Positions 32,201 to 60,820 of a stretch of DNA of 64,000 nt are shown here, in pieces (positions within the stretch are counted from its first letter, which is position 1; every line of letters starts with the position of its first letter). A program made the translations under genes and the position numbers. This stretch comes from Squalus acanthias (lineage: Eukaryota), in contig CM059431.1 of NCBI GenBank assembly GCA_030390025.1, forward strand, positions 144,214,001 to 144,278,000, given 5' to 3'. Below the pieces are notes generated by a model, which had not been told where the DNA came from, made no database searches, and was given only the letters and a program-made list of their open reading frames with translations.

Positions 32201-33049
32201 TTGTTCAAGTATCAATTACACCTGTTTGGTTTTCCCGCCTATGTCCAATTTCAACCGCATGTTGGGATACCGCTTAACTTTGGTTCATTTGTTATGGAGA
32301 CTTCCGAGTAAACGACCTCTCCCTTTACAATGGCTAAAATATGCAGGCAATCGACCACTCTCTGGGCTGAGTGCCCTCTAGGTAGAGTTAAATGGGTCAA
32401 CACTCTGATACTGACACCGTACTGTCGTGTTAGTTTTGTTTAGTTTTCATGACAAAATGTGACATGTTTAGTTGGGGAAATAAAATTGACTACCAACAAG
32501 CGGTAGATGATGTAAAGACGATATTATTACCAAATAAGTGCATGACTGCAAGAAAGAACAAAAGTTCATTTTCTGTTTCCTGTTCTCATATTTACTCTGT
32601 GCACCTGACGAGTCAACAACCCATCTCGGTTTAGGTGGTGATTTACAATGTGAGTCTAAGACGGCGGGAGACGCACGTCCGCATGACATTATCTGGGTCA
32701 GGGCTGTGCTTTGTGGCAGATTGTGCACATTGTCAATAGCAAACGAACCCAGCCAGTGGTTTCAGCAGCTGTATATTTTGGTGCAGCTTTGGATTCCAGC
32801 ACAAAATGGACTCCTCCCGCTTGTTCCATTCTTACCTATCCAAATATAGCCATAGCATCTCCAGCAATGGCTGCTCTCCTGTCCAGCATTGTTAACTTGG
32901 CGCTTCCACAAAGATTTAAGCTTCGCCCTCTCCCCTTCCTCATTCACAGCTGCCCCTTGATGGCATCATCCGAAGACTTGGAGTCAGCTTCCACATGTGC
33001 TGACGTCATAACTCTCAGACTCTACGTCCCCTGAATATAGAATATGAAG

Positions 33050-36604: not shown

Positions 36605-38220
36605 TCATGAAATAGTACTAGTGGTACTAGCGGGCTTAAAAGTGGATATATCCCCAGGCCCTGACGGCATGATTTCCAGGCTGCTGTGTGAGGCAAGGGT
36701 GTAGACTGCAGGGGCTCTGACATACATTTTCAGAACCTCTCTGGCCAAAGGGGAGGTGCCAGGGGACTGGAGAACAGCTAACGTAGTAACATTGTTCAAG
36801 AAGGGGAGTAGGGATAAACCAGGGATTTACAGGCAAGTGAGCCTAACATCAGGGGTAGGGAAATTATTGTAAAAAATTCTGAGGGAAATAAATAGTCTTC
36901 ACTTGGAGAGGCAGGGATTAATCAGGGATAGTCAGCATGGCAATGTCAGGGGGTGATCATGTCTGACCAATTTGAAATAATTTTTCAACGGGGTGACTAG
37001 GTGTGTGGATGAGGATAGTGTCGCTGATGTAGTCTACATGGACTTCAGTAAGGCTTTTGACAAAGTTCCACATGGGAGACTGGTCAAGAAGGTAAGAACC
37101 CATGGGATCCAGGGCATTTGGACACATTGGATCCAGGATTGGCTTAGATGCAGAAGGCAGAGGTTGATGGCCAAAGTTTGTATTTGTGACTGGAAGACTG
37201 TGTCCAGTGGTGTACTGCAGGGATCGGTGCTGGGTCCTTTGCTGTTTGTAGTGTACATTAATGATTTAGATTTGAATGTAGGAGGTATGATCAGTAAGTT
37301 CGCAGATGACAGTAAAGTTGGTGGAGTGGCAATTAGCGAGGAGGGAAGCCTCAGGCTACAGGACGATACAGACGGGATGGATGGATGAGCAGAACAGTGG
37401 CAAATGGAATTTAACCCGGAAAAGTGTGAGGTGATGCATTTTGGGAGGACTTACAAGGCAAGGGAATGCACAATGAAAGGTAGAACCCCAGGAAGGACAG
37501 AGGATCAGAGGGATCTTGGTGTGCATGGACATAGATCCCTGAAGGCAGCAGGACAGGTAGATAAGGTGGTTAAAAAGGCATATGGGATACTTGCCTTCAT
37601 TGGCCCAGGTATCGAATATAAGGACAGGGAGGTTATGATGGAGCTGTACAAAACTCTAGTTAGGCCACAGCTGGAATACTGTGTGCAGTGCTGGTCGCCA
37701 AACTATAGGAAGGATGTGATTCCATTGGAGAGGGTGCAGAGGAGATTCACCAGGATGTTACCTGGGCTGGAGCGCTTCAGCTATGAAGAGTGACTGGACA
37801 GGCTGGGGTTGTTTCCTTAGAGCAGAGTAGGCTGAGGGGGGACCTGATTGAGCTGTACAAAATTATGAAGGGCATAGATAGTGTAGATAGAAAGGAACAT
37901 TTCCCCTTAGTAGAGTGGTCAATAACCAAGGGCATAGTTTCAAGGTAAGGGGCAGGAGGCTTAGAGGGGATTTGAGGAAAAAAAAATTCACCCAGGGGGT
38001 GGTTGGAATCTGGAACTCACTGCCTGAAAGGGTGGTAGAGGCTTCAACCCTCACAACTTTCAAGAAGCATTTAGATGAGCACTTGAAACGCCATAGCATA
38101 CAAGGCTACGGACCAAGTGCTGGAAAATGAGATTACAATACACAGGGTTTGATGGCCGGCGCGGACACGATGAGCCGAAGGGCCTCTTTATGGCTGTATA
38201 ACTCTATGACTCTATGACTA
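36605..38220 (+). mobile_element. CR1 LINE, 5'-truncated
   Basis: YMDFSKAFDKVPHGRL, SKFADDSK, RPQLEYCVQ; (CTCTATGA)n tail. Confidence 0.92.
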
Positions 38221-38709
38221 CAGCATAGATGGAGGCCATCCAGTCTAAGCTGGCTCTTTTGAAGACCAATCCAGTTAGTCCCACTCCCAGCTCTTTTTCC
38301 ATATCCCTGCAATTTTTTCTCCTTCAAGTATTTAATAACACCTCTTTTGAAGGCTACTATTGAATATGTTTCCACCACCCTATCAGGCAAATTTCCATTC
38401 TGCATTGACACCGGCAGTGATAATTGCACCGATAGACCTCAGTCCGAGCAGGAACAGTCCTCAGTCATCACGGTTCTGTTTTGGATGATTAGTGGGAAGG
38501 ACACATAACCAGTTACATGCAAATCTCCAAAAGTTCCCCTGCTCCCTATGTCTCGTTGAATCGTTAACCCGTGTATAGAGAAAGTGTTTGGAATATATAT
38601 ACACATAATTCATAACTCATAATCTCGCAATATTAAAAGTTCAGGCAACACGGGCCTCTAATTCTAGTGTTTGATGAATAATATCACAATTCAGCCTATT
38701 TTCTCGGAT

Positions 38710-39096
38710 ATGGTAACGTCATGCTTAATCTACTCTACTATCGACTTGGTGTCCTCGAGTAATAATCCAGAGAACATGAGCTGAAATCCCACCATGCCAG
38801 CTTGAGAATTTGAATTTGGTTTCTGAAAGGTTCTGCAAGTAAAAGGCTGGCATCAGTAAAACTAATCATGAAGCTGTCGGGTTGTTTTAAAACGCAACTG
38901 TTTCACTGATGTCCTTTAGAGAAGGAAACCTGCATTCCTTACCCGGTCTGGACCTCTGTGTGACTCCAGTGGCTGAGTCCTAACTGCCCCTCTGAAGTGG
39001 ACAAGCGAGCTTGTCAGCTCTATCAAGGACAACTAGTGATGGGCATTAAATGCCGACCTTTCCAGGCACGTCCACATGCCTAGAATGAATAAAAAG
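38710..39096 (+). mobile_element. SINE with MetaSINE-like central domain and the 3' tail of the second LINE family
   Basis: TTCACTGATGTCCTTTAGAGAAGGAAACCTGC...CCTTACCCGGTCTGG core; tail GGACAACTAGTGATGGGCATTAAATG...GAATGAATAAAAA. Confidence 0.7.
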
Positions 39097-41444
39097 AATT
39101 CATAGGATTAATATTTTTTTGGTACTTGGTTTCATGAAACAATGAACAAGAGAAGAAATTATCGATTGGAGATTATTTTGGAATAATTGAAGAATTAGTG
39201 ATTAATAAATATCTACTGTCAAAAGTTAGCGTCTAATCAATCACTTCAAACGATTAACCTTCCGATAAAATAACCATCAGTACGGACACAGGAAGTGTCT
39301 CTCCATTATAGGACCAAGTGTAATATCTGGACTCACATTACAGGTCAGCAGTCCACCTTTCTTTCAAAAATCTGTTGTTCTCCTCGGAACTGAACTGACG
39401 AAAACAGCTGCAGGGAAGATAAAATGTTTGGATTGTTGCTTTGAGAAGCTAGTGAGAGAATAGGGCCAAACTCCACCACTCGGCTAAACGGTTATATCAG
39501 ACACACCCCGCAGTGTTACTCAAGTATCCAGTCTGAAAGGCTGGCGAGCTCTGAAGGAGGACGCAGAGTCCCGATCGGTGGGCGACACTCACGGGTAAGT
39601 TAAGATGACTTCATAATGTCCATCTGATTAATTTTACCAGAGACATGGCATTTGTTGCGATCAATGGGGGCAATTTAAACCCTGGGGGATGGTGTGAAAT
39701 GGGCGATGTGCTATTAGCCCCCGTTACACGCCCGCCAGATGTTCTTTTCCGTTGAGATCCATTGAAGGGAAAATCTGGCGAGTGCGGATAACAGCCCGTT
39801 CGATACCGTGCGTTTTACGCAACCAAAGTGTGCAGAATTGTAACATGTTTATCTGCAGAAATATTACAGTATATTTTCGGATTGATGGATATCTTCAGTC
39901 CGAAATTGTCAGTTGAGGTCCTGTCCTCAAATGCAATCCAACCATTACAGACAATATCACAGGAACACATGAAATGTGTGGGCAGGAAAAGACCAGTTGC
40001 TCCGTCAAGCTTTCCCACACCACGCTGGCCGGAGCATCACCGCCCGTCCCCACCTCCCACCCCGGCAGCCATGTAATCTCCTGGGAGAGGCAAAACAACC
40101 AGAGTCAAAAACTCAGGATCAAAAAGGAAAACATAAGCTGGAAAACCCCTCTGCGGCCCCCTCCGTCGATCAATAGCAGTCTAGGAGATAAGATGGAACA
40201 TCCCATGTGAATTGATAAGAATTTCCTGCGCTAATAATTATGGATTGAAATTCCGAGCTGTGGCTGTAAACTTCACAACCGCTTATGGAATCATAGAATA
40301 GTACAGCACAGAAGGAGGCCATTCGGACCATCGGGTCTGCGCCGGAACCTGAATGTATGGATCAGATGTATATTTACAGAGCGTAGCTATCAGGTTTCAA
40401 ACCTGTTATTTTCGCTCAGATTGCTTTTTTTCTTTAATTTGCTCGTTTCGAGGTTAAACACCGATAGGTGACCGTTCGGCTGACTGGCCCGGTTTTTTGT
40501 GTTGTAACTTCTATGCATTATATTTCTCTATCTGGTTATTGCAGCAAAGATCTTTGTAAATTACAATGCTTGCTTGAGGTAATGTTGTTTTTGAAATTAG
40601 AAGAGAGAAAAGCTATTTGCAACGAAATCTGCGTCTCTACGGCAAACACAAGGAACATGTCCCGTAAGACTATTTTTAACAACTGATTATTCAATTTGCA
40701 TTTAACACAATGCAGAAGTAAAACTACGTCTCAGCGTTCAGCCGAAATCAGACACTCATGTTTACATTGATGTAATTGCATCTCTATTTAGTTGAATTAT
40801 CAGTGTAACCACATACATTAATAACACATAGTATGAAGTGCTTTATTATTATAAATATAGAGAACGGAATGAAAGTTAAATAGGAAGATGTTCGCTAGGC
40901 TGTGTTGAAATCATTGCCTCGGTGTGAATGGAAATTCATTTTGGTTGGTAATTATAGCGAAATTCACAATAAAAATAGATGCTTGGGATTTCAGAACGAA
41001 TATCAGTCAGAACAAAGGGCTTCATCACCGCAGGAAAAATATGGCCATCGATTTGGCCCCAATCCATTGACCCAACCAATCTTCACAACTGGGTAGAAAG
41101 TTTCCTTCAGAGGTTTAGATTTGTCATTGTTTTTAACAGAACTATTAAAATCCCCAGCTTGTGATTCGTCAAAACGAAGCAGTCCTCAATATTCAAAGGT
41201 AAGAACCTTATGAACATGACATGAATGTGTCATGTTGGTGGGTTCAATCGAAACGAATTGAATTGGTAGAAAATAGTCAGAGATTCGGTGCCAGGATGGC
41301 TAAAATATCACAAATTTCCATTGCCAGATTATAATATTATAAAGAGTATTGTTTAGTCACTATTAAGTGAAATGTTGGCATTCTAATGGCTGTGATCTAC
41401 CTTCTTATTCACTAAGGGTCGAGTGTCCAGTCCTTATTTGGAAC

Positions 41445-41609
41445 ATGGCAACTTCACTGGGCATAGAAGAAAGCGGCATCAGTTCCGATATTAACCTACA
41501 ATCCGGTACAAGGAAAGCCCTGGTGAGACTGGGAGGCTCCCGGACTCATTCACCAAACAGAAGAGTAAATAGTCCAGGAATTCAGATTAGAAAACCGAAA
41601 ATTCTGGGG
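41445..41609 (+). CDS. MS4A coding exon 1 (cytoplasmic N-terminus)
   Basis: MATSLG...IRKPKILG|gtgaga, 165 nt. Confidence 0.8.
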
Positions 41610-44600
41610 GTGAGATGAAAGCATTTATTTTATTAATTTATTCCGTGCCAAATAGATCACAATTTCAACATGCAATGTTTTACTTTCAAGACACCTTGAG
41701 TAAAATCGTGTTCAGTCGCTTTGTGTAGGGACATCATCAATTAGCTGATGGAGGTTAGTTCCCGTCACTACCCGTAACGAAATTGTAAATAACTTCACAT
41801 TGATCACATGTAGAGTTTATCTGGGACTACCAACCGGGGAATATGTTCCTGAGTATATTTATGAGCTAAACTTTTAAAAATTAAGTCTGGGGATATAGGC
41901 CTCGTTAGCAAAGTCGGCATTTATTTCCCAGACCATTTCCTCTTGAGAAAACCGTGGTGCGCCTTCTTGTTGAACAGCTGCAATCCATGTGGTGAAGGTG
42001 TTTCCACAGTGCTGTTAGCTAAGCATCTCAAGGGTTTTGACCCAACGATGATGAAGGAACGGCGGTTATCTGTCAATGTCGGGATGGTGTGTGACTTGGA
42101 GGGTTGTTGATGATATTCCCAGTGTCTGCTGCCCTTGTCCTTCTGGGTTGTGGTGTTCGCGGTTTTGGGCGGTGATGTTGAAAAAACCTTGGCGAGTTGC
42201 TGCAGTGCATCCTGTAGATGGGACACACTGCAGCCACGGTGCACCGGTGGTGGAGGGAGTGAATGTTTACTGTGGTCCACAGGCGTATGTGTGTTGGAGA
42301 ATTCCCTCCATGGCCATTGTCGTAACAAAGGGTTATTAGTCCGGCGACAATAAATCAGCTCATGAGTAACCCACGCGCTTTAAAAAAAAAATAACATGCT
42401 TTATTTTATTGGTCAATAATAGTATTAGATTTTATATACAGTGTTATATTAAATGACAAGCTGACATACACACTATACCCAGTTCTGATGAAGGGTCCCA
42501 GACCTGAAACGTTAACTCTGTTTCTCTCTCCACGGATGCTGCCTGACCTGCTGAATATTTCCAGCATTTTCTGTTGTTATTTCAGATTTCCAGCATCCGC
42601 AGTATTTTGCTACTGTACAAATTATACAACCTGGTTCCCCGGCCCGGAGTGATTACTTTCGGCGCTAGGCTATCTGCATGTCCGCGGGCTTCCAACTGAA
42701 TCTGACTCTACCAACTGACCCTGAAACGCTCCCACCCCAAGAGAACCACCAGCCCGTGTTTCCCAGGCGTGGAGCGACCAGCTCCATCCCTCCAGGCCAT
42801 CCGCACGGCTGCGTGCTTCCTGATCAACCCGAGAACGTTCTGCCTTGGGGGAAAACAGGTTCTATTCTTATACTATAGTACAAGCTTGGCCTGTGCCTAC
42901 GTAATACATAGTTGCACATTTTGCCGAGGCCACGTTTTCAGGTTTATACCCCGCTTTTATAGGGCTAGAAATTCGACTCTGGCGGTGGCACAAAATGGGC
43001 GATATCGGTCAGGGGACTGGTGTTTATAGCGTCTGATATTCAATTCCATTGCAGTCAAAAGGACTGAACATAACTGCGGATAACTGGGCCGCCGATGCGA
43101 TACCGCCCGTTTTGTGTCACGCCCGCGATTAATTTCTAGGCCAATTTTCGATCCCTGCCTGTTCTACAAACTGTGTTTAAAATGCAATAATTAGTTACAG
43201 GTTTATCTTTTACCGTGGCATATGGTGTCTTGGTAACTAAGAACATAAGAACATAAGAAATAGGTGCAGGAGTAGGCCATTCGGCCCTTTGAGCCTGCTC
43301 CAGCATTCAATGAGATGATTGCTGATCTTCTGCCTCAACTCCATTCACCGGCCCTATCGCCATATCCCTTGATGCCCTTACTAGTAAGAAATCTATCGAC
43401 TTCTGTTTTGAATATACCAAATGACTGAGCCTGCACAACCCTCTGGGTTAGAGAGTTCCAAAGATCCACCAACCTCTGTGTGAAGAAATTGCTTCTCATC
43501 TGAGTCCTGAATGGCCTACCCTTTATCTTGAAGCTGTGGCACCTGGTTCTGGACTCCCCAGCTAAGGAAACATTTTCCCAGCATCCATCCTATCAAGCCC
43601 TGTAATAATTTTGTATGCTTCAATGAGATCCCCTCTCATTCTTCTGAATTCAAGAGAATACAGGCCTAATTTACTCAATCTCTTCTCATATGACAGTCCC
43701 GCCATCCCAGGAATCATTCTCATGAACCTTCGTTGCACTCCCTCTATGGCAAGTATATTGTTCCTTAGGTAAGTAGACCAAAATTGTACACAGTACTCCT
43801 GGTGTGGTCTCAACAAGGCCCTATATAATTGGAGTAAGACTTCTTTACTCCTGTACTCACATCCTATTGTAATGAGGAAGGAGCGAACAGCTCCGAAAGC
43901 TTGTAAAATTAAATAAATCTGTTGGACTATAACCTGGTGTTGTGCGACTTCTCATTATTTTAATGAAGGCTAGCATACCATTTGCCTTCCTAATGGCTTG
44001 CTGCACCTCCACATTCACTTTCAGTGATTCATGTACAAGGACACCCAGGACCCTTTTAGCATCTGCATTCCCCAATCTTTCACCATTTAGGAAATACTCT
44101 GCCTTTCTGTTTTTTCTACCAAAGTGGATAACTTCACATTTATCCACATTATATTCCATCTGCCATGTTCTCGCCCACTCACTGAGCCTGTCGAGATCCC
44201 CTTGAAGCCTCTTCACATCCTCTTCACAACTGACACTGCCACCTAGCTTTGTATCATCAGCAAATTTGGAAATGTTACATTTAGTCCCCTCATCCAAATC
44301 ATTGATATAGATTGTGAATAGCTGATGCCCAAGCACCGATCCTTGCGGTACCATACTAGTCACAACCTGCCATCCTGAAAAGGACCCGTTTAGCCCTACT
44401 CTTTGTTTTCTGTCTGTTAACGAATTCTCAATCCATGCTGGTATATTACCCCCAATTTCATGTGCCCTAATTTTGTTCACCAATCTCTTGTATGGGACCT
44501 TATCGACGGCCTTCTGAAAATCCAGATACACCACATCTACCGGTTCCCCTTTGTCTACTCCACTAATTACATCCTCAAATAACTCCAATAGGTTTTTCAA

Positions 44601-47600
44601 ACAGGGTTTCCCTTTCATAAATCCATATTGACTCTGCCCAATCTTACTATTAGTTTCTAAGTGCCCAGTTCTTGCATCCTTTATAATAGTTTCCAGCATT
44701 TTCCCAACTACTGATGTGAGGCTAACAGGTCTGTAGTTCCCCGTTTTCTCTCTCCCTCCTTTCTTAAATATCGGGGTTACATTGGCTGTCCTGCAATCTG
44801 CAGGAACCGTTCAAGAATCTGTAGAAATTTGGAAGATGACAACCAATGCGTCTACTATTCCAATGGCCACCTGTTTCGAAACCCTAGGATGTAGGTGATC
44901 CGCTCCTTGGGATTTGTCGACTTTTATTCCCATTAATTTTGCTAGTAGTGCTTTTTTACTAATAATAATTTCTGTAAGTTCCTCATTCTCTTGGTTTTCG
45001 CGTATTTCTGGGAGGTTTTTTGTGTCTTCCTCCGTGAAGACAGAGACAAAGTATTTATTTAATTTCATGCCTTTTCCTCATTCCCCATTATAAATTCTCC
45101 CGTCTCTGACTGTAAAGGACCTACATTTACCTTCGCCAGTCTTTTCCTTTTCAAATACCGATAGAAGCTTTTACAATCTGTTTGTATGTTTTTCGCTAGT
45201 TTCTGCTCATATTCCATTTTCCCTTTCTTTATCAATTTCTTGGTCACCCTTTGCTGATTTCTAAAACGATCACAATGCTCAGGCTGACCGGTTTTTCTGG
45301 CAACTTTATAAGATTCCTCCTTTGACTTAATACTAGCTTTAATTTATTTTGTTAGCCATGGTTGGATCACTTTTCCTTTTGGCTTTTTATGCCAACTTGT
45401 CTCTTTTCAGCCTGTTCCTCGACCTGCTTTATTTAAATCAACGTGTGTCCTTTCGTTTCCAAACTGTTTATTGTTCATACCGAAAGACAAGATTCAAGTT
45501 TCCCTTTCTCCCACATCTGCTCTAACACTAAAAAGCAAATGGAAATAATGTCGGGACACCTTGACCATTTAAATGATCTTAAAGCTTTCTAACAATGAGC
45601 TAATCGAATCATCTCAATCAGCTTTCAACAAAGCTTTACTTGTCTCTTACCTTGGTCTCGCTCTCCTCCTCTCCCCTTGTCTCTATCTCTTATCGCTCTC
45701 TCTCGCTACCTCCCCCATTCTCGCTCTCATACACAGTGTAATATTTTGTATGATTTTATACATGTTAGCTTTGTTTCCACAGTGCAATACTTGTTCTCTT
45801 TTAGGTTATTCAGATTCTGTTGGGAATACTTTTCATAATAACCTGGGCGCCTTCAATTCTGAATCCGAGATCGGTGGCAGGAGCGCACAGAACACACTGG
45901 TGTGGCGCGCTATCGGTGAGTTTCTGTCCAATGTCCATTTGGAGGAATTTAAATCTGGTCAGAATTGATTAGATGAGATTTCAGACTTATTTTGCAATTT
46001 AATGCATGACCGTGTAGCGCCTTGCTGTAATATTCTTCTGATTTTCGCTACTTTCTCGAGGCATCAACTATTCTAAACCGAATAACATTCCCGTTAAAAT
46101 AGCGAACAAACAGACGAAAGAGAATGCCGAAGCAATAATGTCAGCAACCAAATTTATTCAAAAAACATTATGTATCGAGATCGTTATTTATTTATTGCTG
46201 TCGTTTTCAGCACTTAAAACATAAAAATATAAGAAATAGGAACAGGAATAGGCCATTTGGTCCTTCGAGCCTGCTCCGCCATTCAATAAGATCATAGCTG
46301 ATCTTCTACCTCATCTCCACTTTCCTGCACTATCCCCATAACCGTTGATTCTGTCAATATTCAAAAATGTATCGATCTCTGTCTTGAATATATTCAATGA
46401 CTGAGCCCTCACAGTCCTGTGGGTTAGAGAATTCCAAAGATTCACCAACCTCTGAGTGAAGACATTTCTCCTAATTTCAGTCCTAAATGGCCGACCCCCT
46501 TATTCTAAGACTGTGACCCCTGGTTCTAAACTCCCCAGTAGTTAAACATCCTCCCTGCATCTACCCTGTCAAGCCCTGTAAGAATTTTGAATGTTTCATT
46601 GAGATCACCTCTCATTCTTCTAAACTCTGGAGAATATAGGCCTAGTCTACTCAATCTCCCCTCATAGGACAATCACCCCCCCCCCCCATCCAAGGAACCA
46701 GTCAGGTGAACCTTCGTTGCAGTCGCACTATGGCTAGTATAACCTTCCTTTGGTAAGGAGACCAAAACTGTAAACAATAATCCAGGTGTGGTCTCACCAG
46801 AGCCCTATATAATTGGAGTTAAATTGCCTGTGAATAATCAGCCAGAAAATTATGCTTCAGAATTTAAGATAGTTGTTGTAGTTCTCCAGAATAATACCGG
46901 GGCTAAACTAATCTTAATTACGAGTACGATTTGCATAAACTAGATTTTTATTCCCTCGAGCATAGAAGATTAAGCAGTCATCTGACTGACGTGTTTGAGA
47001 TAATTAAATTATCTAATATGGTTGATAGAGAGAAATGTGAGTGGGTGAGTCAAGAACATAACCTGAAAATTAGAACTAGACCATTCAGGGCTGATGTCAG
47101 AAAGCACTTATTCACGTAAATGATATTGGAAATCTGGTATTATCCCCCTCAAAAGCTGTTGATTGTAGTGGTCAATTGAAAATTTTAAAACTGAGGCTGA
47201 TCGATGTACGTTACATGAGGTTATTAAGGGTTACAGAACTAATGCAGGTAGATGAAGCTAAGTTGCAAATCAGCTATATTCTAAATAACTGGCGGAACAG
47301 GCTCGAGGGGCTGAATGACCTAGTAGTGGTTCGCTGTTCCAATGCACAGGCTTTGTCATGTGGAATTGATATGTCACATTTCTTTCCCAGTTTCTTATTT
47401 CTGGGAGCCTGTGGTGTATTGTGGAAAAGACATCATCTACAGGCCTTGTAAGTATCTCCACAATAACTCTCCATTTAAACACCGCAGTCCATTGCACGGA
47501 ATACTGTTCTAAAGTGACATTCTGGTGGCTGAGCTGATTATGCACACATTGGAAAAGTTACCTTTAAAAGGGATTGTTCAGATATGTGGTAACCCGTATA

Positions 47601-50600
47601 ATTGGGTGGGTTTCGGGGATGAAATTGGAGAATTGCCGGGTGGTAAAACAAGCAGTCGTGCATCGGCCACTCGTTAGACATCCGGGCCGATATTCAGTCC
47701 CATTGATTTCTTAATCGATATTGTCTTTTTTTATCCTCACTGGGGTTAAAGTTGGACCTCGTATGTGGTAAAACGAGTCGGCAGCCCGTTTTAAGATCTA
47801 CCCCAAAGTGTTTTATCCACGAGGCCCTGTTGTAATTCCAGACACTTGTTCTCATGCACTTTTACTAGGCAAGAGTATTAAAGCTACTGGGATCCAAAAC
47901 GGATCGATGGAGTTAACCTAAAGATCAGAAATAATCTAACTGATTGAAGGAACAGTTTCGAGGAGCTGAATGGCCTACTCCCGTTCCTGTGTTCCTAATG
48001 ACTGTCTAGACGAAATTTTCTATGCAATTATTTCATTATTTGGTGATTTGACTCTCCCCCTGATCAATACAGTTTCCCACTCCTCACACTGCTCAGATTA
48101 CTCTGCGAAATCCAAAATAGAAAAGCGCTTCCCTCTACAAATTAGATTGAAAGAAATTTTCCTTTATGCCTACTACATATCCTGCCATACTAGGTCAAAT
48201 TTTATTTCCAGAAAGAAAATAAAAGACTCTTATTTCACCCCTCTTTCAAAGAGCCGGCACAGACATAATGGAATGGCCGCCTTTGTACTGTAAGGTTCTA
48301 TGACACTATTTTTATTGCAATAAATCCGTTTTGTATGGAATTTAGAACTCATTAATGTCTTTAGATGGGTACATTGAAGGAGATTCGCCGCCCAGACAAT
48401 TAATGGCTTTGTGAAGATCTCACCTAACTCAAATATTTTATTAATCTTTTACTTATTCTTTCGAAGGTGGCGACGTGTCTGGCGCTGAATGCGATCACTG
48501 CCCTTCTTGGCGTAGCCAATCTGGTCCTGCTTTGCATTTACTTCGAGGTTAGGACCTCATTAATTATCTGACTTTTGGTAGTGTCTGCGATTCTTGGCCC
48601 ATTACTTTGGCTGTAAGTAAAGTACTAATTTTATCCAATTCCCTTTTAAAAGTTATTATAGAATCTGCTTCCAACGCCCTTTCAGACAGTGCATTCCAGA
48701 TCATAACAACTTGCTGCATAATTTTTGTCCTCACATCCCCTCTGGTTAATTTTCCAAAGACCTTAAATCTGTGTCTCTGGATACCGAGCGCTCTGTCACT
48801 GGAACCAGTTTCTCCTTATTTTATCCATCAAACGCCTTCATGATTTTGTACACTTCTATCAAATTTCCCCTTAATATTCGTTGCTCTAAGAAGAACAACC
48901 CCAGTTTCTCTCGTCTATCCACGTAACTGAAGTTTTTCATCCCTGGCACCTTTCTATAAAATCTCATCTGCACCCTCTCTGAGGCTTTGACATCATTCCG
49001 AAAGTGTGGTGCCCAGTATTGACCACTGTACTCCAGCTGAAGCCTAAACAATGTTTTATACAGGGTTAGCATAACTCCCTTAATACATGAATAACAGTTT
49101 CAAGTCAGCACTCCCTCTGGGCGTGTTATGGTTGATTGAACAATTAAATAGTTTCATACAAAAAACAATTGAGATTGCCCTTCACAGTTCAGCTTTGCGT
49201 CACTTTGCATTTCCCAGGCACACACAGGTGTAATAAACCCAATGGTCGGCGGATGAACTTGAGAGAGAAGCAGTGAGAAATCCCTTTAGGAGGAGTTCTA
49301 GGACCGCTCTGGGATTACATCTTACGAAGTGCAACCAAAATTCACTGTCAATTCAGGGTTTGAATGGGATGAGGGGACATCCTGTGAAGTCATGTATACA
49401 GGAAACACGTTTGAAGTTAATAGAAATAATCAGAGAGGCAACACATACTTGATTAAAATCTACAAATAGCTAACAAAAAGATGTATTTCATTGGCCGTGT
49501 GAATCATGTGTTTTATAAAGTAAATAAGTAAAAGCTGATCACAGTGGCAGAGTGTCGGTAAACATAGGACAGAGATTGAAGATAAATGGCAAAAGAACCT
49601 GTGGGGGGATGAGGAGAAATAATGTTTTACACAGCGATTTGTTATGATCTGGAATGTACTGCCCGAACGGGTGCTGGAAGCTGATTCAATACTAACTTTC
49701 AAAAGGGAATTGGATAAACGCTTAAATGGAAAAAAAAATTGCGGGGCTACGAAGAAAGGGCAGTGTGTCTAATTGGATATCTCTTTCAAGGTGCAAGCAC
49801 AGGCAGGATGGGCAGAATGGCCTCCTTCTCTGCTGTATCATTCTATGATTCTATGAATTGGTACTGCGGAGATTAAAGTAATCTTCGGCCATTCCGGATT
49901 TTCTACGTACCCAAACTGATATAACTTTTCAAATTATATTTCCATCTGCTCACATTTGTAAGGAGCAGACGTTATACTGTAATTGTACCAGCCGGCCTGT
50001 GGCAGCGCTGTAGCTCCTGTGTTTTGCGGCTACTCCCTCCTCAGCCTGGAGTGCAGAGAAGCTTCAATGAAATGTTCTTCTAGACTTCCAACATTGCGAT
50101 CAGTTTGGTTATCTAAAGGGAAAATTCAGACTTGCAAACGGGGGCTGACTAACATTTCCACGCCCTGGTCCATTAATTCCCTCCCCCACACTGAAATATG
50201 CTTACTGCCGAAGACATATTCTTGATGCCCTGTGGACGGTCGCCTAATATTGAGACAATGGGGAGGAAATTAGCCTGCGTTATGCTCCTCCCGATTTTCT
50301 TTTCCATTGAATTCAATTGGAGAGGAAAATCGGGAGGAGCGTAAAACGGACTTTAGATTCCAGTTTAGCACGACTGGCAGTGTTCAATTCCGCTCCCAAT
50401 ATTTTTCATTGGCCAAAATTTGGCTAATGTGTAAGCTTCGATTTGAGATTCTCCTCGAAATGTGGTGTCGCTGTATATACGAATGTTCTTGTTGCCTGAT
50501 GTCGTCTTATTTCTGTTTGCCCTGAACATGTTCTTGTTACTGATCCACAGATATACCGTTTCAGTCTTGTACCCGTTCTCCCCCTGTTGGTATTGTTGGC

Positions 50601-53600
50601 GCTGTTGATATCAATTGTCGCTTCCATTTTTGAGGGCAAGAAGTTGTGGAACCATTCCAAATTACAAGTCAATAAGGTTTGTAGTTATAAGACCAAATTA
50701 CCAATCAATATTTCGGGCTCTGCTGAATATTGACTCTAAAAATTCAGAATTTGGTATTTACCTCCCCAAGGTATTGCAATGAGAAATATTTCACCAGGAT
50801 TTACTGTAGCCAGCGGAGGAACCACTCGTTCATTCGTTAGACTTTTTTTTATTTGTTCCTGGGATGTGAGCGTCGATGGCAAGGCCAGCATTTTTTGCCC
50901 ATCCCTAGTTGCCCTTGAGAAGATGGTGCTGAGCAGCCTTCTTGAACTGCTGCAGTACGTGTGGTGAAGTTACTCCCATAGTGTTGTTTGGGATTGAGTT
51001 CCAGCATTTTGACCCAGCAATGAGAAAGGAACAGCGATATATTTCAAGTCAGGATGGTGTGTAACTTGGAGGGGAACTTGGAGGTGGTGGTGTTCCCATG
51101 CCCCTGCTGCACTTGTCCTTCTAGGTGGTAGAGGTCGCTGGTTGGGGAGGTGCTACCGAAGAAGCCTTGAGGAGTTGCTGCAGTGTATTTTGTAGATGGT
51201 ACACACTGCAGCCACGGTGCGCCGGTGGAGGAGGGGGTGAATGTTTGAGGTGGTGGATGTGCTGCAATCACGCGGGCTGCTTTGTTCTGGACGCTGTCGC
51301 GCATCTTGAGTGTGGTTGGAGCTGCACTCATCCAGGCAAGTGGAGAGTGTTCCATCTCAGTCCTCACTTGTGCCTTTTAGATGTGGGAAGTCTTTGGGGA
51401 GTCAGGAGGTGAGACACTCGCTGCACAATACACAGCCTCTGACCTGCTCATGTGGCCACAGTATTTACGTGCCTTGACCAGCTAAGTTTCTGGTCAATGG
51501 TGACCCTCATGATGTTGATGGTGGTGGATTCGGCGATGGTAATGCCGTTGAATGTCATGGGGCGATGGTTAGGCTCACGCTTGTTGGAGATAGTCATTGG
51601 CTTGTACTTGTTTGGCACTAATTTTGTAGCCACTTATCAGAACAATCCTGAATAGAAACATAGAAACATAGTAAGATAGGAGCAGGAGTGCGCCATTCGG
51701 CCCTTCGAGCCGGCCCCGCCATTCAATATGATCATGGCTGATCCTCTATCTCACTAGCATATTCCCGCTCTCTCCCCATACCCATTGATGCCTTTTACAT
51801 TTAGAAATCTATCTATCTCCTTCTTAAATATATTCAGTGAATTGGCCTTCACACCTTCTTCGGTAGAGAATTCGACACGTTCACCACCCTCTGAGTGAAG
51901 AAATTTCTCATCATCTCAGTCCTACCCCGTATCGTGAGACTGTGACCCCTCTTTCTAGATCACCCATCCAGGGGAAACATCCTCCCTACATCCAGTCTGT
52001 CTAGCCTTGTCAGAATCTTACACGTTTAAATGAGATCCCCTCTCATTCTTCTAAACTCTAGTGAATACAGACCTAGTCGACCCAATCTCTCCTCATTCGA
52101 CAGTCCTTCCATCCCACGAATCAGTCTGGTGAACCTTCGCTGCACTCGCTCTATGGCAAGTATATCCTTTCTTAGGTAAGGAGTCCAAAACTGCACACAG
52201 TACTCCAGGTGTGGTTTCACCAAGGCCCTGTATAACTGTAGTAAGACATCCTTGCTCCTGTACTTAAACGCTTTTCAAAGGAAGGCCAACATACCATTTG
52301 CCTTCCTAACTGCTTGCTGCACCTGCATGTTTGCTTTCAGTGACTGGTGTACAAGAAGACACCCAGGTCCCTTTATACATCAACATTTCCCAATCTATCA
52401 CCATTTAAATAATACTCTGCCTTTCTGTATGTCTACCGAAGTGGATAACTTCACATTTATCCACGTTATACTGCATCTGTCATGTATTTGCCCACTCACT
52501 CAACTTGTCTAAATCGCCTTTAAGCCTCTTTTCATCCTCCTCAAAACTCACAATCCCACCTAGTTTCGTGTCGTCAGCAAACTTGGAAATATTACATTTG
52601 GTTCCCTCATCCAAATCATTGATATATATTGTGAATAGCAGGAGCGTAAGCACTGATCCCTGCGGTACCCCACTAGTCACCGCCTGCCACCCCGAAAAAG
52701 ACCCATTTATTCCTACTCTCTGTTTCCTGTTTGTTAACCAATTTTCAATCCATTCCAGTATATTACCCCCAATCACATGTGTTTTAATTTTGCACACTAA
52801 CCTCTTATGTGGGATTTTATCAACGGCCTTCTGAAACTTCAAATACACCACATCCACTGGTTCTCCCTTATCTATTCTACCTGTTACATCCTCAAAAACT
52901 CCAGTAGGTCGTCCACGCATTGCTGCATGCGGGCATGGGGTGCTTCTTTATCTGAGGAGTTGTGAATTGAACTGAACACAGTGAAATCATCAGCGAACTT
53001 CCACACTTCTGACCGTATGATGGTGGGAAGGTCATTGATGAACCAGCTGTAGATCGTTGGGCCGAGGACAGGGCCCTGAGGCTCTCCTGCAGCGATATCC
53101 TGGGGCAGAGATGATTGACCTCCAACAACCACATCTATCTTCCTTTGTGTTATATTTGTGATATGAATCCAGCCAGTGGAGAATTCCCTCCTGATTCCCA
53201 TTGATTTTAATTCTACTTTGTCTCCTCGATGCCACACTCGGTCAAATGCAGCCTTGGTTTCAAAGGCAGTCACTCTCACCTCATCTCTGGAATTCAGTAC
53301 TTTTGTCCATGTTTGGAACAAGGCTGCAATGAGGTCTGGAGCCGAGTGATCCTGGAAGAACGCAAATTGAGTATCGGTGAGCAGGTTATTGGTTAGCCTG
53401 TGCCGCTTGATAGCACTGTCGATGACACATTCCATCAATTTGCTGTTGATTGAGAGTAGACTGATGGGGCTGTAATTGGTCGGATTGGATTGGTCCTGTT
53501 TTTTGTGGACAGGAAGTACCTGGGCAATTTTTCACATTGTCGGAAAGATGTCAGAGTTGTAGCTGTATTGGAACAGCTTGGTTAGAGGTGCGACTAGTTC

Positions 53601-54886
53601 TGGAGCCCCAGTCTTCAGCACGACAGCGGCGATTGCTGTCGGGACCCATAGCTTTTGCTGTAACCAGTGCACTCAGTCGTTTCTTGGTATCACGTGGAGT
53701 GAATTGAATAGGCTGAAGACTGGTTTCTGTGATGGTGGGGAACTCAGTAGGAGGTCGATATGGTTCATCTGCTCAGCAATTCTGGCTGAAGATGGTTGCA
53801 CACGCTTCAGACTTGTCTTTTGCACTTGTGTGCTGGGGTTCGCCATCATTGAGGATGGAGATGTCTGTTTAATTCCTATGACTTATTGTACTTGAATTTG
53901 TAGTAGCAGATCCAAACGTTGCGGCGCCCTCTACAGTGCATCTGGGACCTGTGTGAACAGAACAAGCAATTGTGTATCCCTTTCACCAATCATAGTGAAG
54001 GTGTGAAGTATGAACAGCGCAGATTGTGAAACAGGAAGTGTAAGTTAGAATAAGTATTCAATGTCAAATCAGGCATTGAAAGCGAATCAGAGAAAGGGAA
54101 AGAAAGATTGGATTCAGAGAGAGAGAAAAGAACAGAAAGAAAGATAAACCACTCGTTTTCAATTTTTACTTTTAACAATAATCTCTATCAACAATGAATA
54201 TCTGAAGGAATGAGACTCAACATTCGTAAATGTTAATTATCAATGCTGGAAAGGTTGTTTGTCAGTAATTAAAAATTATCACAATTTTAAAATTGCTACT
54301 TTGACTGATATGGACAATCCCTAGCTTTCTGTGGTGAGATTATTCCCTCTCTACCGGGCAAGTGCAGGAAATGTACGCAGCTGAGTACATTTGAATGGCG
54401 CCCCGGACAGCGAGAGGCCATTTTCGAGCAGTTTAACGAATAGCGGTGGATCTCGGACAGTAACTCCAGGTTTCTTCGTTGAACTGCGCATCTGTGCTGG
54501 CTGGAAGTAGCTGTCCGATTTGTGAATAAATAACAGTGAGTGCCATTAGCCTCACCATTATTTTGACAGTAAATTCCAGCCCATTATAAGGTATGCCGCG
54601 ATTTTCATTTATCGAGGTTTTTCACACTTTACGAGGAGCAATTCATCATCGTTTATCTCAGTTTGTTTGTTTGCATATTTATTTATTTGTTTATTTATTT
54701 TCTGTTTCCTAACAATTCCATTTTCCTTCCCAGCCTTCCAATGAGCCTGCGGATCAGGACAACAGGCCTCAAACAACAATCCCCAAGGTCCAACCAGAAC
54801 AGTCTGATGCCACCACCGTTATAGAAAGTTTTTTAACGGTACAAAATGGAGCTCGTACAATGGGACACATTATAGATGAAATTTAA
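41445..54886 (+). CDS. MS4A (CD20/FceRI-beta family) four-transmembrane protein gene, six coding exons, about 230 aa; possibly pseudogenised at exon 4
   Basis: Phase-0 GT-AG exons 41445-41609, 45805-45915, 47391-47447, 48467-48547, 50551-50676, 54734-54886. They spell PKILG|VIQILLG...HWCGALS|FLISGSL...[14 protein letters not shown]...|...[10 protein letters not shown], the MS4A pattern. Confidence 0.85.
41885..42265 (-). mobile_element. 3' fragment of the second LINE family
   Basis: Similar to 50845-51250 (same orientation) and to 26775-27180 (inverted). Confidence 0.75.
42478..42612 (+). mobile_element. Solo Penelope pLTR fragment with a minimal hammerhead core
   Basis: Reverse-complement match to 17580-17715; contains AGTT-CTGATGA-A-GGGTC(CCA)GACCT-GAAAC-GTT-AACT. 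Confidence 0.8.
42962..43142. mobile_element. Short palindromic MITE-like element
   Basis: GGGCTAGAAATT / AATTTCTAGGCC ends; inner inverted pair CACAAAATGGGCG / CGCCCGTTTTGTG. Confidence 0.65.
43238..45395 (-). mobile_element. CR1 LINE, 5'-truncated, in MS4A intron
   Basis: RT ORF 43857-44699 ([10 protein letters not shown]); (CATAAGAA)n tail. Confidence 0.92.
43876..43960 (+). mobile_element. 85-bp Penelope-type insertion inside CR1, with truncated hammerhead core
   Basis: TSD TAATGA at 43870 and 43961; (TGA)GGA-A-GGAGC(GAACA)GCTCC-GAAAGCTT followed by AATAAA. Confidence 0.7.
45805..45915 (+). CDS. MS4A coding exon 2 (TM1 to start of TM2)
   Basis: ttttag|[37 protein letters not shown]|gtgagt, 111 nt. 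Confidence 0.85.
46218..46820 (-). mobile_element. CR1 3' fragment
   Basis: High similarity to 27398-27980. Confidence 0.88.
46880..47340 (+). mobile_element. Old CR1 3' fragment
   Basis: YSLEHRRL...[22 protein letters not shown]1 3' UTR. Confidence 0.75.
47391..47447 (+). CDS. MS4A coding exon 3 (TM2 end and loop)
   Basis: ttcccag|[19 protein letters not shown]|gtaagt, 57 nt; the ISGSL motif is characteristic of MS4A. Confidence 0.9.
48467..48547 (+). CDS. MS4A coding exon 4 (TM3); 3' end ambiguous (48547 or 48612)
   Basis: Branch-like CCTAAC, pyrimidine tract, ag|[27 protein letters not shown]|gttagg; a stronger GTAAGT at 48613 is one nt out of frame. Confidence 0.75.
48620..49075 (-). 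mobile_element. CR1 fragment
   Basis: [21 protein letters not shown]...LGLFFLEQR. Confidence 0.8.
49530..49856 (+). mobile_element. CR1 3' end
   Basis: ...GGCAGAATGGCCTCCTTCTCTGCTGTATCATTCTATGATTCTATG tail. Confidence 0.8.
50551..50676 (+). CDS. MS4A coding exon 5 (TM4)
   Basis: ccacag|[42 protein letters not shown]|gtttgt, 126 nt. Confidence 0.8.
50845..53865 (-). mobile_element. LINE of the second (CR1-group) family, decayed, split by a CR1
   Basis: [25 protein letters not shown]; sequence is continuous across the 51653-52907 insertion. Confidence 0.85.
51653..52907 (-). mobile_element. CR1 LINE, 5'-truncated, nested in the second-family LINE
   Basis: RT ORFs 52480-52920 and 52026-52223; (CATAGAAA)n tail. 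Confidence 0.9.
54734..54886 (+). CDS. Candidate MS4A terminal exon (cytoplasmic tail)
   Basis: Strong acceptor ttttccttcccag|[18 protein letters not shown]...DEI*; correct phase but no conserved motif. Confidence 0.5.
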   Translation, partial: PSNEPADQDNRPQTTIPKVQPEQSDATTVIESFLTVQNGARTMGHIIDEI

Positions 54887-55692
54887 CGTAGAGAATTGTA
54901 AAGTGTTGCATTTTTGAAGGAAGAATGAGGACTATCTTTATGAACTAAAAAGTACAATTTAAAAAGGGGTGCAGGAACCGAGTGACCTGGGGGTTCAGGA
55001 TCACACAATTTTCATGGTGGCAGGACAAGCTGATACAGCTGTTAACAGCATATGGGATCATTTGCTTTGTAAATAGAGGCACAGCGTACAAAAGCAGCGA
55101 GGTTATGCTAATTCACTGTAAATTATTGATTAGTCCTCAAATGGAGCATTGTGTCCAATTTTGGACACCACATTTTGGAATGATATCAAGAATTTGCAAA
55201 TGGTGCAGAGGAGATTTAATAGAATGTGAGCAGGGATGAGTGGTTTCAGTTATGTCGAGAGCCTATAGAAGCTGGGATTGTTCTCCTTAGAGCAGGAAAG
55301 GATAAGGGGAGATTCATTTGAAGTGTTCAAAATTATGAGTCGTTTTGATAGAATAAATGAGGAGAAGCTATTTCCACTGGCAGAGGAGCTGGTAACCAGA
55401 GGATAGAGATTTAACGTAATTGGCAAAAGTGCAAGAGGGGAGATGAGGAGAAACGTATTTACACAGCGAGTTGTTGTGATCTGGAATGCACTGTTTGAAA
55501 TGGCGGTGAAAGCAGATTCAATTGTAACTTTCAAAAGGTAAGTGGAAAGACTTAAAACGGAAAAATTTGCAGGGCTATGGGGAAAGAGCAGGGGAGTGGG
55601 TGTAATTGGATCGCTCTTTCAGAGAGTCAGCACGGGCACGATGGCGCGAATGGCCTCTTTCGGTGCTGTATCATTCTGTGGTTCGATGATTC
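54860..55692 (+). mobile_element. CR1 3' fragment
   Basis: PQMEHCVQFWTPHF and a CR1 3' UTR. Confidence 0.8.
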
Positions 55693-56204
55693 AGCAAGAA
55701 GACTATTTGGTGCAGTGGCGTCTAAATCCAGTCATGAATGACGTCATTTTTCCATCGAACAACACGGGTGAAGCTAAGAGAATTACATGAAAAACCAACT
55801 CATAAATAAACTGAATAAAGAGAAATTTGAGACGTATCACAACTGTTTATAGTGTGGAAAAATCACCCTGAAATATAACAGTAATCTGATCTGAATGTTT
55901 GGACTTTCTGCAGTGAACGATCTTGTTGATCTTTGATGCAGTAATGCACGTTGTGTTTAAACGATTGAAATAAACTACCTACGGCGCTATATTATTATTG
56001 TCTTAAGACGATCTTATTTTCTTTCTGCACCTCCTGTCAATCCCCCACCCCCGCCTCACCTGTCACCCATGATATGCTTCATTACTTGTTGGTAGGCGAT
56101 CATTCATAGAATCATCGAAGCATAGAAGATAGGAGCAGGAGTAGGCAATTCGGCCCCTCGAGCCTGCACCTCCATTTAATGAGATCATGGCTGATCATCC
56201 AAAT

Positions 56205-59030
56205 TCAGTACCCTGTCCCTGCTTTCTCCCCATACCCCTTGATCCCTTTAGGTTTAAGAAGTATATATATCTCCTTCTTGAATATATTTAATGCATTGGC
56301 CTCAACTACCTTATGTGGTAGAGAATTCCACAGGCTCACCACTCTCTGGGTGAAGAAATTCCTCCTCATCTCAGTCCTAAATGGCTTACCCCTTATTCTT
56401 AGACTGTGACCTCTGGTTCTGAACTCCCCCGCCATCGGGAACATCCTTCCTGCATCCAGTCTGTCTAGTCCTGTCAGAATTTTATGAATTTCAATGAGAT
56501 CCCCTCTCATTCTTCTAAACTCTAGCGAATATAAGCCTAATCGACCCAATCTCTCTTCATACGTCATTCCTGCCATCCCAGGTATCAGTCTGGTAAATCT
56601 TCGCTGTACTCCCTCCATGGCAAGATTATCCTTCCTCAGATAAGGCGACCAAAACTGCACACAATACTCCAGGTGTGGTCTCACCAAGGCCTTGTACAAC
56701 TGCAGCAAGACATCGTTGCTGCTGTACTCGAATCCTCGCGCTATGAAGGCCAATATACCATTTGCCTTCTTAACCGCCTGCTGCACCTGCATGCTTACCT
56801 TCAGCGCCTGGTGCACAAGGACTCCCAGATCTCGTTGCACTTCCCCTTTTCCCAATTTACTACCGTTCAGAAAATAATCTGTCTTCCTGTTTTTGCCACC
56901 AAAGTGGATAACCTCGCATTTATCTACATTATACTGCATCTGCCATGCATCTGCCCAATCACCCAACCTGTCCAAATCATACTGGAGTTTCTCTGCATCC
57001 ACCTCACAGGAAACACGCCCACCCAGCTTTGTGTCGTCTGCAAATTTAGAGATATTACATCTAGTTCCCTCGTCTAGATCATTAATATATATTGTGAATA
57101 ACTGGGGTCCTAGCACCGATCCCTGCGGTACCCCACTAGTCACTGCCTGCCACTCGGAAAAAGACACGTTTATTCCAACTCTTTGCTTCCTGTCTGCCAA
57201 CCAGTTCTCTATCCAAATCAGTACCTTACCCCCAATCCCATGTGCTTTAACTTTGCACGCTAATCTCTAATCCGGGACCTTATCGAAAGCCTTCTGAAAG
57301 TCCAAATACACCACATCCACTAATTCTCCAATATCCATTCTACCAGTTACATACTCAAAAAATTCCAGTAGATTAGTCAGGCATGATTTACCTTTTGTAA
57401 ATCCATGTTGACTTTGTCCGATCCTGTCACTGTTTTTCAATTGCTCTGCTATTACATCTTTTATAATGGACTCCAGCATTTTGCCCACTCCCGATGTCAG
57501 GCTTACCGGTCTATAATTCACCGTTTTTTCTCTACCACCTTTTTTAAATAGTGGGGTTACATTAGCTACCCTTCAATCCATGGGAACTGTTCCAGAGTCT
57601 ATAGAATTTTGAAATGTGACCAGCAATGCATCTACTATTTCTAGGGCCACTTCCTTATGTACCCTAGGATGTAGATTATCAGGCCCTGGGGATTTATCGG
57701 CCTTCAATCCCATCAATTTCCCGAACACCATATCCCTACAAATCCTGATTTCATTCAATTCCTCTCTCTCATTAGACCATATGTTTCCCGACATCTCTGG
57801 GAGGTTTATTTTTGTCCTCCTTTGTGAACCCAGAACCAAAGTATGCATTTAATTGATCTGCCATTTCTTTGTTCCCCATTATAAATTCCCCTGATTCTGA
57901 CTGCAAGGGACCTACGCTTGACTTCACCAATCTTTTACTCTTCCCATATCTATAGAAGTTTTTACAGTCAGTTTTTATGTTCCCAATAAGCTTACTCTCA
58001 TATTCTATTTTCCCCCTCTTAATTAATCCTTTTATCCTCCTTTGCTGAATCCTAAACTGCTCCCAATCCTCAGGATTGCTGCTTTTTCTAGCCAATTTAT
58101 ATGTCCTCTCCTTGGACCTTATGCTGTCCCTAATTTCCCTTGTTACCCACGGTTGAGTCACCTTTTTTGTTTTATTTTCATGCCAAACAGCGATGAACAA
58201 ATTCTGTAGTTCATCCATGCGAACTTTAAATGTTTGCCATTGCCTATCCACCATCAACCCTTTATGTAACGCTCCCCAATCCATCCTAGCCAACTCTCGC
58301 CTAGTACCATCGTAGTTTCCTTTATTTAAATTCAGGTACCTAGTCACTGAGTCAACTACTTCACTCTCCTTCTTAAAGAAGAATTATATCATATTATGAT
58401 CGCTCCTCCCCAAAGGACCTCGCACAACAAGATTGCTAATTAATCCTTTCTCATTACATAATGGCCAGTCTAAGATGGCCTGATCTCTAGTTGGTTCCTC
58501 GACATATTTGTCCAGGAAACCATCCGGTATACCCTCTCGGAATTCCTCCTCCACAGTATTGTTATTAATTTGGTTAGCCCAATCTATATGTAGATTAAAA
58601 TCACCTATGATAACTGTCGTGCCCTTATTGCGTGTGTCTCTAACTTCCCATTTAATGCCATCCCCAACCTCAGCATTAGTGTTTGGGGGTCTGTATACAA
58701 CTCCCACTACCGTTTTCTGCCCCTTGGTATTTCTCAGCTCCACCCATACAGATTCCACATCATCAGAGCTAATATCCTTCCATACTATTGTGTTAATCTC
58801 CTCTTCAACCAGCAATGCTACCCCACCTCCTTTTCCTTTTTGTCTGTCCTTCCTGAATATTGAATACCCCTGGCTGTTGAATTCCCAGCCTTGGTCACCC
58901 TGGAGCCATGTCTCCGTAATCCCAATGATATCATATCCATTTACATCTATTTGCACAGCTAATTCATCCACCTTATTACGAATGCTCCTCCCATTAAGAC
59001 ACAAAGCCTTCAGCCTTGTTTTTTAACGCT
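56205..59030 (-). pseudogene. CR1 ORF2 (AP endonuclease + reverse transcriptase), three in-frame stops and one frameshift
   Basis: CLNGRSIRNK, ITETWL, GDFN, SDH, FADD. Stops at 58384, 57573 and 57267; frameshift near 57800. Confidence 0.92.
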
Positions 59031-59188
59031 CTTAGTCCTTTTAGAATTATTATTTACTGTAGCCCTGTTTGATTTACACCCTTGATTTCTCTGCCTTCCA
59101 CTTTTGCTTTTCTCCTTCCTGTCTTTTGCTTATATCCTTGCTTCCCTTTCCTCTGTTTCCCTGCACAGGTTCTCAACCCCCTGCCATT

Positions 59189-60139
59189 TTAGCTTAAACC
59201 CTCCGCAACAGCACTAACAAACACTCCCCCTAGGACATCGGTCCCAGTCCTGCCCAAGTGCAAACCGTCCAGTTTGTACTGGTCCCACCTCCCCCAGAAC
59301 CGGTTCCAATGTCCCAGGAATTTGAATCCCTCCCCCTTGCAACATTCCTCTAGCCACGTATTCATCTGAAATATCCTTCTATTTCTACTCTGACTAGCAC
59401 GTGGCACCGGTAGCAATCCTGAGATTATTACCTTTGAGGTCCTATTTTTTAATTTACCTCCTAACTCCCTATATTCAGCTTTTAGGACCTCTTCCCGTTT
59501 TTTACCTATATCTTTGGGACATATATGCACCACGCCAACTGGCTGTTCACCCTCCCCCTCCAGAATGCCCTGCAGCCGCTCCGAGACATCCTTGACCCTT
59601 GCAACAGGGAAGCAACATACCATCCTGGAGTCTCATTTGCGGCCGCAGAAACGCCTATCTATTCCACTTACAATAGAATCCCCTATCACTATAGCTCTCC
59701 CGCTCTTTTTCCTCCCGTCCTGTGCAGCAGAGCCACCCATGGTGCCAGGAAGTTGGTTGCTGCTGCCTTCCCCCGATAAGCTATCCTTCTCAACAATATC
59801 CAAAGCGGTATATCGGTTTGAGAGGGGGGTGGCCACAGGGGACCCCTGCACTACGTGCCTGCGCCTACTACTCTGCCTGGTGGTCACCCATTCCCTTCCT
59901 GCCTTTGCAGCATTTAGCTGCGGTGTAACCAACTCATGAAACGTGATATCCACTACGTCCTCAGCATCGCGAAAGCTACAGTATGCATCCATTTGCAGCT
60001 CCAGCGCCGCAATGCGCTCTGCGAGTAGCTGCAGCTGGATACACATTCCGCACACATGGTCGTCAGGGACACAGGAAGTGTCCCTGATTTCCCACATAGT
60101 GCAGGAGGAGCATGACACGGGGCCGAGCTGTGCTACCAT
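59189..60139 (-). pseudogene. CR1 ORF1 (CxxC zinc finger, coiled coil, SGNH esterase), one in-frame stop
   Basis: CSSC...CGMC, IVIGDSIV, DGLHL; TGA at 59635-59633 is in frame with the downstream ORF. Confidence 0.9.
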
Positions 60140-60449
60140 GACTTATCCTTTAATTAATTTAAATTAAATTAAATCAAATCGATACCAAAAATTACACCAC
60201 AATTAAATGATATATTCAAGGGCCCTTGTTTACTAGCACTCTCCGCTACACAACTGAGACCTTAGAAACTAAAAACACAAACTTAAGACCTTCTAAACTT
60301 TATAAACTATTAACCTTAACACACAACTATACAGTAGTATAAATACTCACCTGGCCGTACTCACCCAATCAGCTGCTTCCTCTTGTCCGAGTCACTTTTT
60401 GAATCGTGACTTTGCTCTGGAAGGCCGACGCCGGTCTGTGCGATTGGTA

Positions 60450-60820
60450 AGGCTCTGTAAAAATGCCCGCGAAAGTGAGGTTAAATACTCACTGTGCTGT
60501 TGCTCTCTCCGCTCCTGAAACCGGCTTCTGAAAAAAGCCCGCGAATGTGAGTTTAAATCCTCACCGTACAGTCGCTCTCTCCGTTCCCGACACCGGCCTC
60601 TGTAAAAAAGCCCGCGAAAGTGAGTTTAAATACACATTCTACCGTCGCTCTCTCCGCTCCCGACACTGGCCTCTGAAAAAAGCCCGGGAAAGTGAGTTTA
60701 AATATTCACTGTGCTGCTGCTCTCTCCGCTCCCGACACTGGCCTCTGAAAAAAGCCCGGAAAAGTGAGTTTAAATACTCACTGTACCATCGCTCTCTCTG
60801 CTGCCGACACCGGCCTCTGA
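60450..60820. repeat. 72-bp tandem array (5 copies) at the CR1 5' end
   Basis: GCCCG starts at 60465, 60537, 60610, 60682, 60754; each unit has the imperfect palindrome GTGAGTTTAAATACTCAC. Confidence 0.93.

Follow-up and report, generated by a model that had tools for sequence, protein, structure and literature searches.

A stretch of 64,000 nucleotides (nt) of the Squalus acanthias genome (assembly GCA_030390025.1, contig CM059431.1, positions 144,214,001 to 144,278,000 of the forward strand; this whole stretch is the window, and all positions below are counted from its first letter) holds, between 41445 and 54886, six short exons that join into a gene for a protein predicted to cross the membrane four times. 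To judge from its sequence, this gene very likely belongs to the MS4A family, that of CD20 and FcepsilonRI-beta, and it is probably, as modelled here, an intact and fast-evolving cartilaginous-fish member encoding an accessory tetraspan. The exons are the following, with the parts of the protein as predicted from the joined frame.

Exon 1 (E1), 41445-41609, plus strand: 165 nt, with the ATG start; cytoplasmic N-terminus, PK.LG motif at the end, then helix 1.
Exon 2 (E2), 45805-45915, plus strand: 111 nt; helix 1, first outer loop and beginning of helix 2.
Exon 3 (E3), 47391-47447, plus strand: 57 nt; remainder of helix 2 and inner loop.
Exon 4 (E4), 48467-48547, plus strand: 81 nt; helix 3, carrying the L..N motif.
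Exon 5 (E5), 50551-50676, plus strand: 126 nt; second outer loop (very short), then helix 4 and a basic juxtamembrane stretch.
Exon 6 (E6), 54734-54886, plus strand: 153 nt, ending in TAA; a tail rich in T, P, Q, I, D and E, without tyrosine.

All exon lengths are multiples of three, and the joined frame runs over 230 amino acids (aa) from ATG to TAA with no internal stop. The five introns (4195, 1475, 1019, 2003 and 4057 nt) are all of the GT-AG type and in phase 0, while the intronic open reading frames (ORFs) that were tested proved to be reverse transcriptases (Pfam RVT_1) of long interspersed nuclear elements (LINEs). An approximate weight matrix places the 10 splice sites in the top 0.1-5.8% among the 3483 GT and 3839 AG sites that the window contains. 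The layout of phase-0 exons, including a 57-nt helix-2 exon, may be one that other MS4A genes share, and the 19-residue spacing of E3 agrees with the printed MS4A alignment; the literature searched gave nothing useful on MS4A exon organisation. The first-pass annotation of this DNA had already proposed six phase-0 GT-AG exons among LINEs giving an open protein, and its coordinates, its introns and the nature of the tested intronic frames all hold, as do the places of the motifs that it quoted. Two features were absent from it, an inverted paralog and a C-terminal end that lies in a LINE.

The predicted topology is that of the family. On the GES (Goldman-Engelman-Steitz) hydrophobicity scale the protein gives four peaks, at residues 53-71, 85-103, 110-128 and 147-165, with basic K/R flanks at the first and the last, so that the four transmembrane segments announced by the earlier reading are recovered, as a prediction. 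Size falls in the MS4A class (230 aa, for a range of 200-300), and a model in which both termini face the cytoplasm fits. The published motif list of the family comprises VLGAIQIL, LGAxQI, FIISGSLS, GYPFWG, SLx2N, LSLG, Sx3Ax2G and a cysteine pair in loop 2 (PMC11663944). In helix 1, VLGAIQIL is matched at 6 of 8 positions and LGAxQI at 4 of 5, at residues 53-54; at residue 93, where E3 begins, 6 of the 8 positions of FIISGSLS agree; and SLx2N is represented in helix 3, at residue 115, by its L and N, the serine being replaced by cysteine as it also is in dogfish MS4Ax1. The latter protein, published together with the fragments x2 and x3 (Zuccolo et al., 2010; PMC2826416), belongs to the same 200-300 aa class, with four helices and a C-L-A.N pattern. 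Counted by eye on Fig. S1 of that article, 22 of 47 residues are identical to it in three blocks (8/12 over the E1/E2 junction, 7/19 over E3 and 7/16 where E4 begins); the 35 residues made of E3 and the beginning of E4 align without a gap, and human MS4A15 shares 9 of 19 residues over E3. Outside these blocks identity to MS4Ax1 is low, and the present protein differs from it by a longer, more polar loop 1 and a shorter, cysteine-free loop 2. The order of the motifs is also that of FcepsilonRI-beta (MS4A2) and CD20 (MS4A1). These two proteins have ITAM (immunoreceptor tyrosine-based activation motif) tyrosines or a large disulphide-bonded loop 2, neither of which is found here. In MS4A2 the first helices are encoded in one exon, whose skipping yields a shorter protein (PMC8776166), and E2 could behave likewise.

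Could such a chain of motifs assemble by accident? Four splice-anchored residue patterns taken from the published MS4A alignment were sought in 150 windows simulated with a third-order Markov model. Each pattern alone occurred on average 0.053, 0.647, 0.013 and 2.5 times per simulated strand; the ordered chain of four was present on the real plus strand, at precisely the places of E1-E4. None of the 150 simulations contained it, nor did any contain the E3 motif followed by a donor 57 nt downstream. The patterns were composed after the window had been seen, which biases this test in favour of the gene. E1 and E2 are supported independently by a second copy of both, which tblastn detected in head-to-head orientation to the main gene.

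Paralog exon 1, 29922-29758, minus strand: 67% identical in amino acids and 80% in nucleotides.
Paralog exon 2, 26593-26483, minus strand: 59% identical in amino acids, codon 6 being an in-frame stop.

The splice sites of these two exons are preserved, and homology extends from about 2 kb upstream through to about 200 nt inside intron 2. Exons 3-6 of the paralog were found nowhere in the window by tblastn, blastn or nhmmer, and may sit past its left edge. The two copies align without a gap over 276 exon nt, E1 thus being free of indels, while 757 nt upstream contain 13 gaps, and the ratio of nonsynonymous to synonymous substitution rates (dN/dS) is 0.57 (bootstrap 0.32-1.06). In a simulation of neutral decay, in which half of the synonymous divergence was assigned to the main copy, the 230-codon frame stayed intact in 4.3% of cases with substitutions only and in 0.1% when indels were added at the rate of the flanks. 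From the gap pattern and the dN/dS value taken together we infer that both copies were probably under constraint for much of their history, one of them being now dead, and that the protein evolves fast. Between the two copies lie two related stretches of about 300 nt (32468-32761 and 35021-35346) with similar translations, which are probably a small repeat and not a gene.

Three further elements bear on the two ends of the gene.

41403-41444, plus strand: putative splice acceptor and 28-nt leader, with AG before 41417, kept in the paralog.
39500-39600, plus strand: candidate upstream exon, probably non-coding, of uncertain start, with a strong donor after 39594 whose GT is kept in the paralog.
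54860-55696, plus (sense) strand: old LINE fragment, with 62% identity over 827 nt (blastn) to another LINE copy, at 37404-38225.

Since a conserved acceptor stands 28 nt before the ATG, and since the donor at 39594 is preceded by no in-frame ATG, E1 is likely not the first exon and a non-coding exon would precede it. A pyrin or other Pfam domain was not found in the upstream frames that were scanned, namely 9 of 72 ORFs of at least 55 aa and the 35-aa frame before donor 39594. At the other end, the 5' edge of the LINE (about 54850-54876) supplies, in another frame, the final ten or so codons of E6 and its stop. Either the E6 tail was recruited from the LINE or the true end of the gene is different. 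E6 is indeed the least secure of the exons: its acceptor is strong and its frame open, yet homology lends it no support, and intron 5 holds other strong acceptors with open frames, for example at 53513. Donors inside E6 are weak. Short simple repeats occupy 54660-54707, just 5' of the E6 acceptor.

Database searches with E1, E2 and E5 returned no relative. As queries to a protein collection, E1 gave 15 candidates, none of them at E<=0.1; E2 with three intron codons gave 1 candidate, none at E<=10; and E5 gave 189 candidates, none of which is a relative. A HMMER search of E2 against 1.84 billion representatives produced two matches, both of them tandem-repeat proteins scoring through 5 repeats, which were rejected; so were the chance matches of E2 to G-protein-coupled receptors (GPCRs) among solved structures (E 1.7-3.5), a set in which E5 found none. 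The Atlas search gave no usable match for E2 or E5. As a control, the products of five neighbouring ORFs of the window were looked up in the protein collection and none of the five was present. The absence of the gene is therefore no sign that annotation missed it, the proteins of this genome perhaps not being included. That the protein was called divergent is thus borne out, both by this lack of relatives for E1, E2 and E5 and by the alteration of several family positions. As for transcription, three small contig sets of the same species, whose RNA origin is a guess, are uninformative either way: they contain next to none of the 17 words of E1; over 39000-55200 their depth is zero in the E1 and E2 bins, cover elsewhere seeming to come from repeats; and of the 15 joints listed among them (there are 258 further ones), none coincides with an exon junction.

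A number of observations weigh against the reading of an intact MS4A tetraspan. Helix 2 is weak on the Kyte-Doolittle scale (1.3). GYPFWG is unmatched before helix 2 (best 2 of 6), the dogfish MS4Ax1 row being also without its Trp, and LSLG and Sx3Ax2G have no in-register match, in which many printed family rows deviate too. Cysteines occur only at 88, 101, 115 and 134, and loop 2 (about residues 136-143, some 8-10 aa) is without the pair found in most MS4As, for which MS4A8B and MS4A12 are the exceptions named in PMC11663944. Helix 4 lacks the L-E or L-Q of most printed family rows. A short, cysteine-free loop 2 is also seen in mammalian MS4A15 and mouse MS4A4B/C/D (rows of Fig. S1 identified by their order), which, unlike the present protein, retain the tryptophan of FWG/IWG as well as the L-E of helix 4; their orthologues were found in mammals only (PMC2826416). 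The dN/dS interval includes 1 and averages in a pseudogene, and the stop of the frame comes from a LINE. A scan of the six single exons with the Pfam model of the CD20-like family, which we take to be PF04103, gave no match, for queries of 20-55 aa that are too short to be informative. The earlier assignment to MS4A/CD20 is well supported by the order and spacing of the motifs and by the predicted topology, as set beside the published alignment and motif list; the single exons by themselves give no CD20 match.

Some of these same points would also fit a gene of the MS4A family that is decaying: selection on it would have been lifted recently, and its frame would be open by inertia without yielding a useful protein. 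The family Trp column, which falls in E2, has Cys in the main gene, next to a Trp, and the pseudogene retains the Trp; several motifs are degenerate, the stop lies within a LINE, dN/dS might reach 1.06 and the sister copy is already dead. We nevertheless hold decay to be unlikely: all 10 splice sites are canonical and strong, 230 codons run without stop or shift, and neutral survival of such a frame would occur in only 0.1-4% of cases, a figure still compatible with a recent loss of function. Somewhat less improbable, and compatible with an intact gene, is a model that has the right family and an incomplete structure, with another or a further last exon, an extra exon in loop 2, or an upstream coding exon such as one for pyrin. 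An upstream addition would suit the conserved acceptor that precedes the ATG and the open frame that spans it; a different terminus would suit the LINE-derived end and the spare acceptors of intron 5. Yet intron 4 yielded no acceptable candidate for a phase-0 exon, the upstream frames scanned hold no Pfam domain, the space available there is limited by the paralog at 11.5 kb, and the donors within E6 are weak.

Two further rivals remain. The protein could be a chemoreceptor comparable to the mouse necklace MS4As or to olfactory CD20, one that senses small molecules and gates the entry of calcium, as the first-pass annotation hinted. In living mice MS4As serve as odour receptors (PMC11026480), and fast divergence with local duplication would suit a family of sensors. 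In PMC7776563, however, MS4A olfaction is listed for rodents only and in ciliated neurons, a cell type that cartilaginous fish lack in their olfactory epithelium, and the present analysis yields no tie between the gene and any sensory tissue; the hint is weak, and we find this role very unlikely. Least probable of all is another tetraspan with a CD20-like fold, TMEM176-like or similar, or an assembly of exons by chance. The lack of database matches for single exons would be explained in this way, and the TMEM176 rows have the same helix-1 motif; the ISGSL block and the helix-3 Asn, by contrast, follow the MS4A rows and not the printed mammalian TMEM176 rows (as compared by eye), while chance is opposed by the absence of the motif chain from every simulation and by the conservation of exons 1-2 with their splice sites in the paralog.

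If the gene is indeed an intact MS4A, its product would form homo- or hetero-oligomers in the plasma membrane or in an inner membrane. There it would serve as an accessory subunit, its helices escorting or clustering a partner receptor, and would adjust the entry of calcium, in the manner of MS4A1, MS4A4A, MS4A12 and MS4A15. Channel and chaperone roles, as well as oligomers, are described for the family (PMC11663944). The partner and calcium steps are all transferred from mammalian members, a further point to be held against the proposal. The only tyrosines, 136 and 140, are both in the second outer loop of the six-exon model, so that neither tail has an ITAM or an ITIM (immunoreceptor tyrosine-based inhibitory motif); with no cytoplasmic tyrosine, signalling through either motif in the protein itself would be impossible. 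And because loop 2 is so short and cysteine-free, there would be little exposed surface, and contacts would probably be made within the membrane. The gene would have arisen, or been copied, by a local inverted duplication after which the sister copy gained a stop and lost exons 3-6. Dogfish MS4As are reported as broadly expressed or intestine-only, not as restricted to blood (PMC2826416), and an epithelial or general role is therefore as likely as an immune one.

The rest of the window is populated by elements of other kinds. An apparently complete DNA transposon of about 4.2 kb, presumably of the Harbinger type, spans 12585-16758 between inverted ends of 21 nt (12585-12605 and 16738-16758); it carries an intact DDE_Tnp_4 transposase ORF (12943-14256, plus strand), a convergent Myb/SANT ORF (15753-16562, minus strand) and a 334-aa frame (14569-15573, minus strand) that is possibly a second exon of the latter. 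On the plus strand, 3341-4470 holds a rhodopsin-family GPCR (Pfam 7tm_1) in a single exon, which is broken into two frames that overlap near 4095-4110, through pseudogenization or an assembly indel. A long, fairly young LINE occupies 56114-60500 on the minus strand, its endonuclease and reverse transcriptase frames being in several pieces. A different retroelement-like fragment is found at 21330-24270, also on the minus strand (frames 21327-21956 and 23094-24269); the one frame scanned has no Pfam match, and we take the fragment to be Penelope-like.

A shark MS4A family has been in print since 2010, and the present gene is a new, divergent member of it with a pseudogene twin. Only three shark MS4A sequences are treated in PMC2826416, the single paper on the subject that was found, and no study of this gene or of any shark MS4A cluster was found in a literature coverage that leaves aside most subscription journals. 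One may go further and imagine an undescribed, fast-evolving cartilaginous-fish subfamily, evolving by birth and death in a cluster that would include a pyrin-MS4A fusion, in which this member, silent in its tails and loop-less, would be the partner within the membrane, or the ligand sensor, of such a signalling MS4A, with a C-terminus recruited from a LINE; this is a speculation that we consider distinctly improbable. The gene bears on the ancestral role of MS4A proteins, be it immune, epithelial or sensory, a question that a single gene does not settle. The pairing of a divergent member with its dead twin shows that in cartilaginous fish, as in zebrafish and mammals, the MS4A family duplicates and turns over locally.

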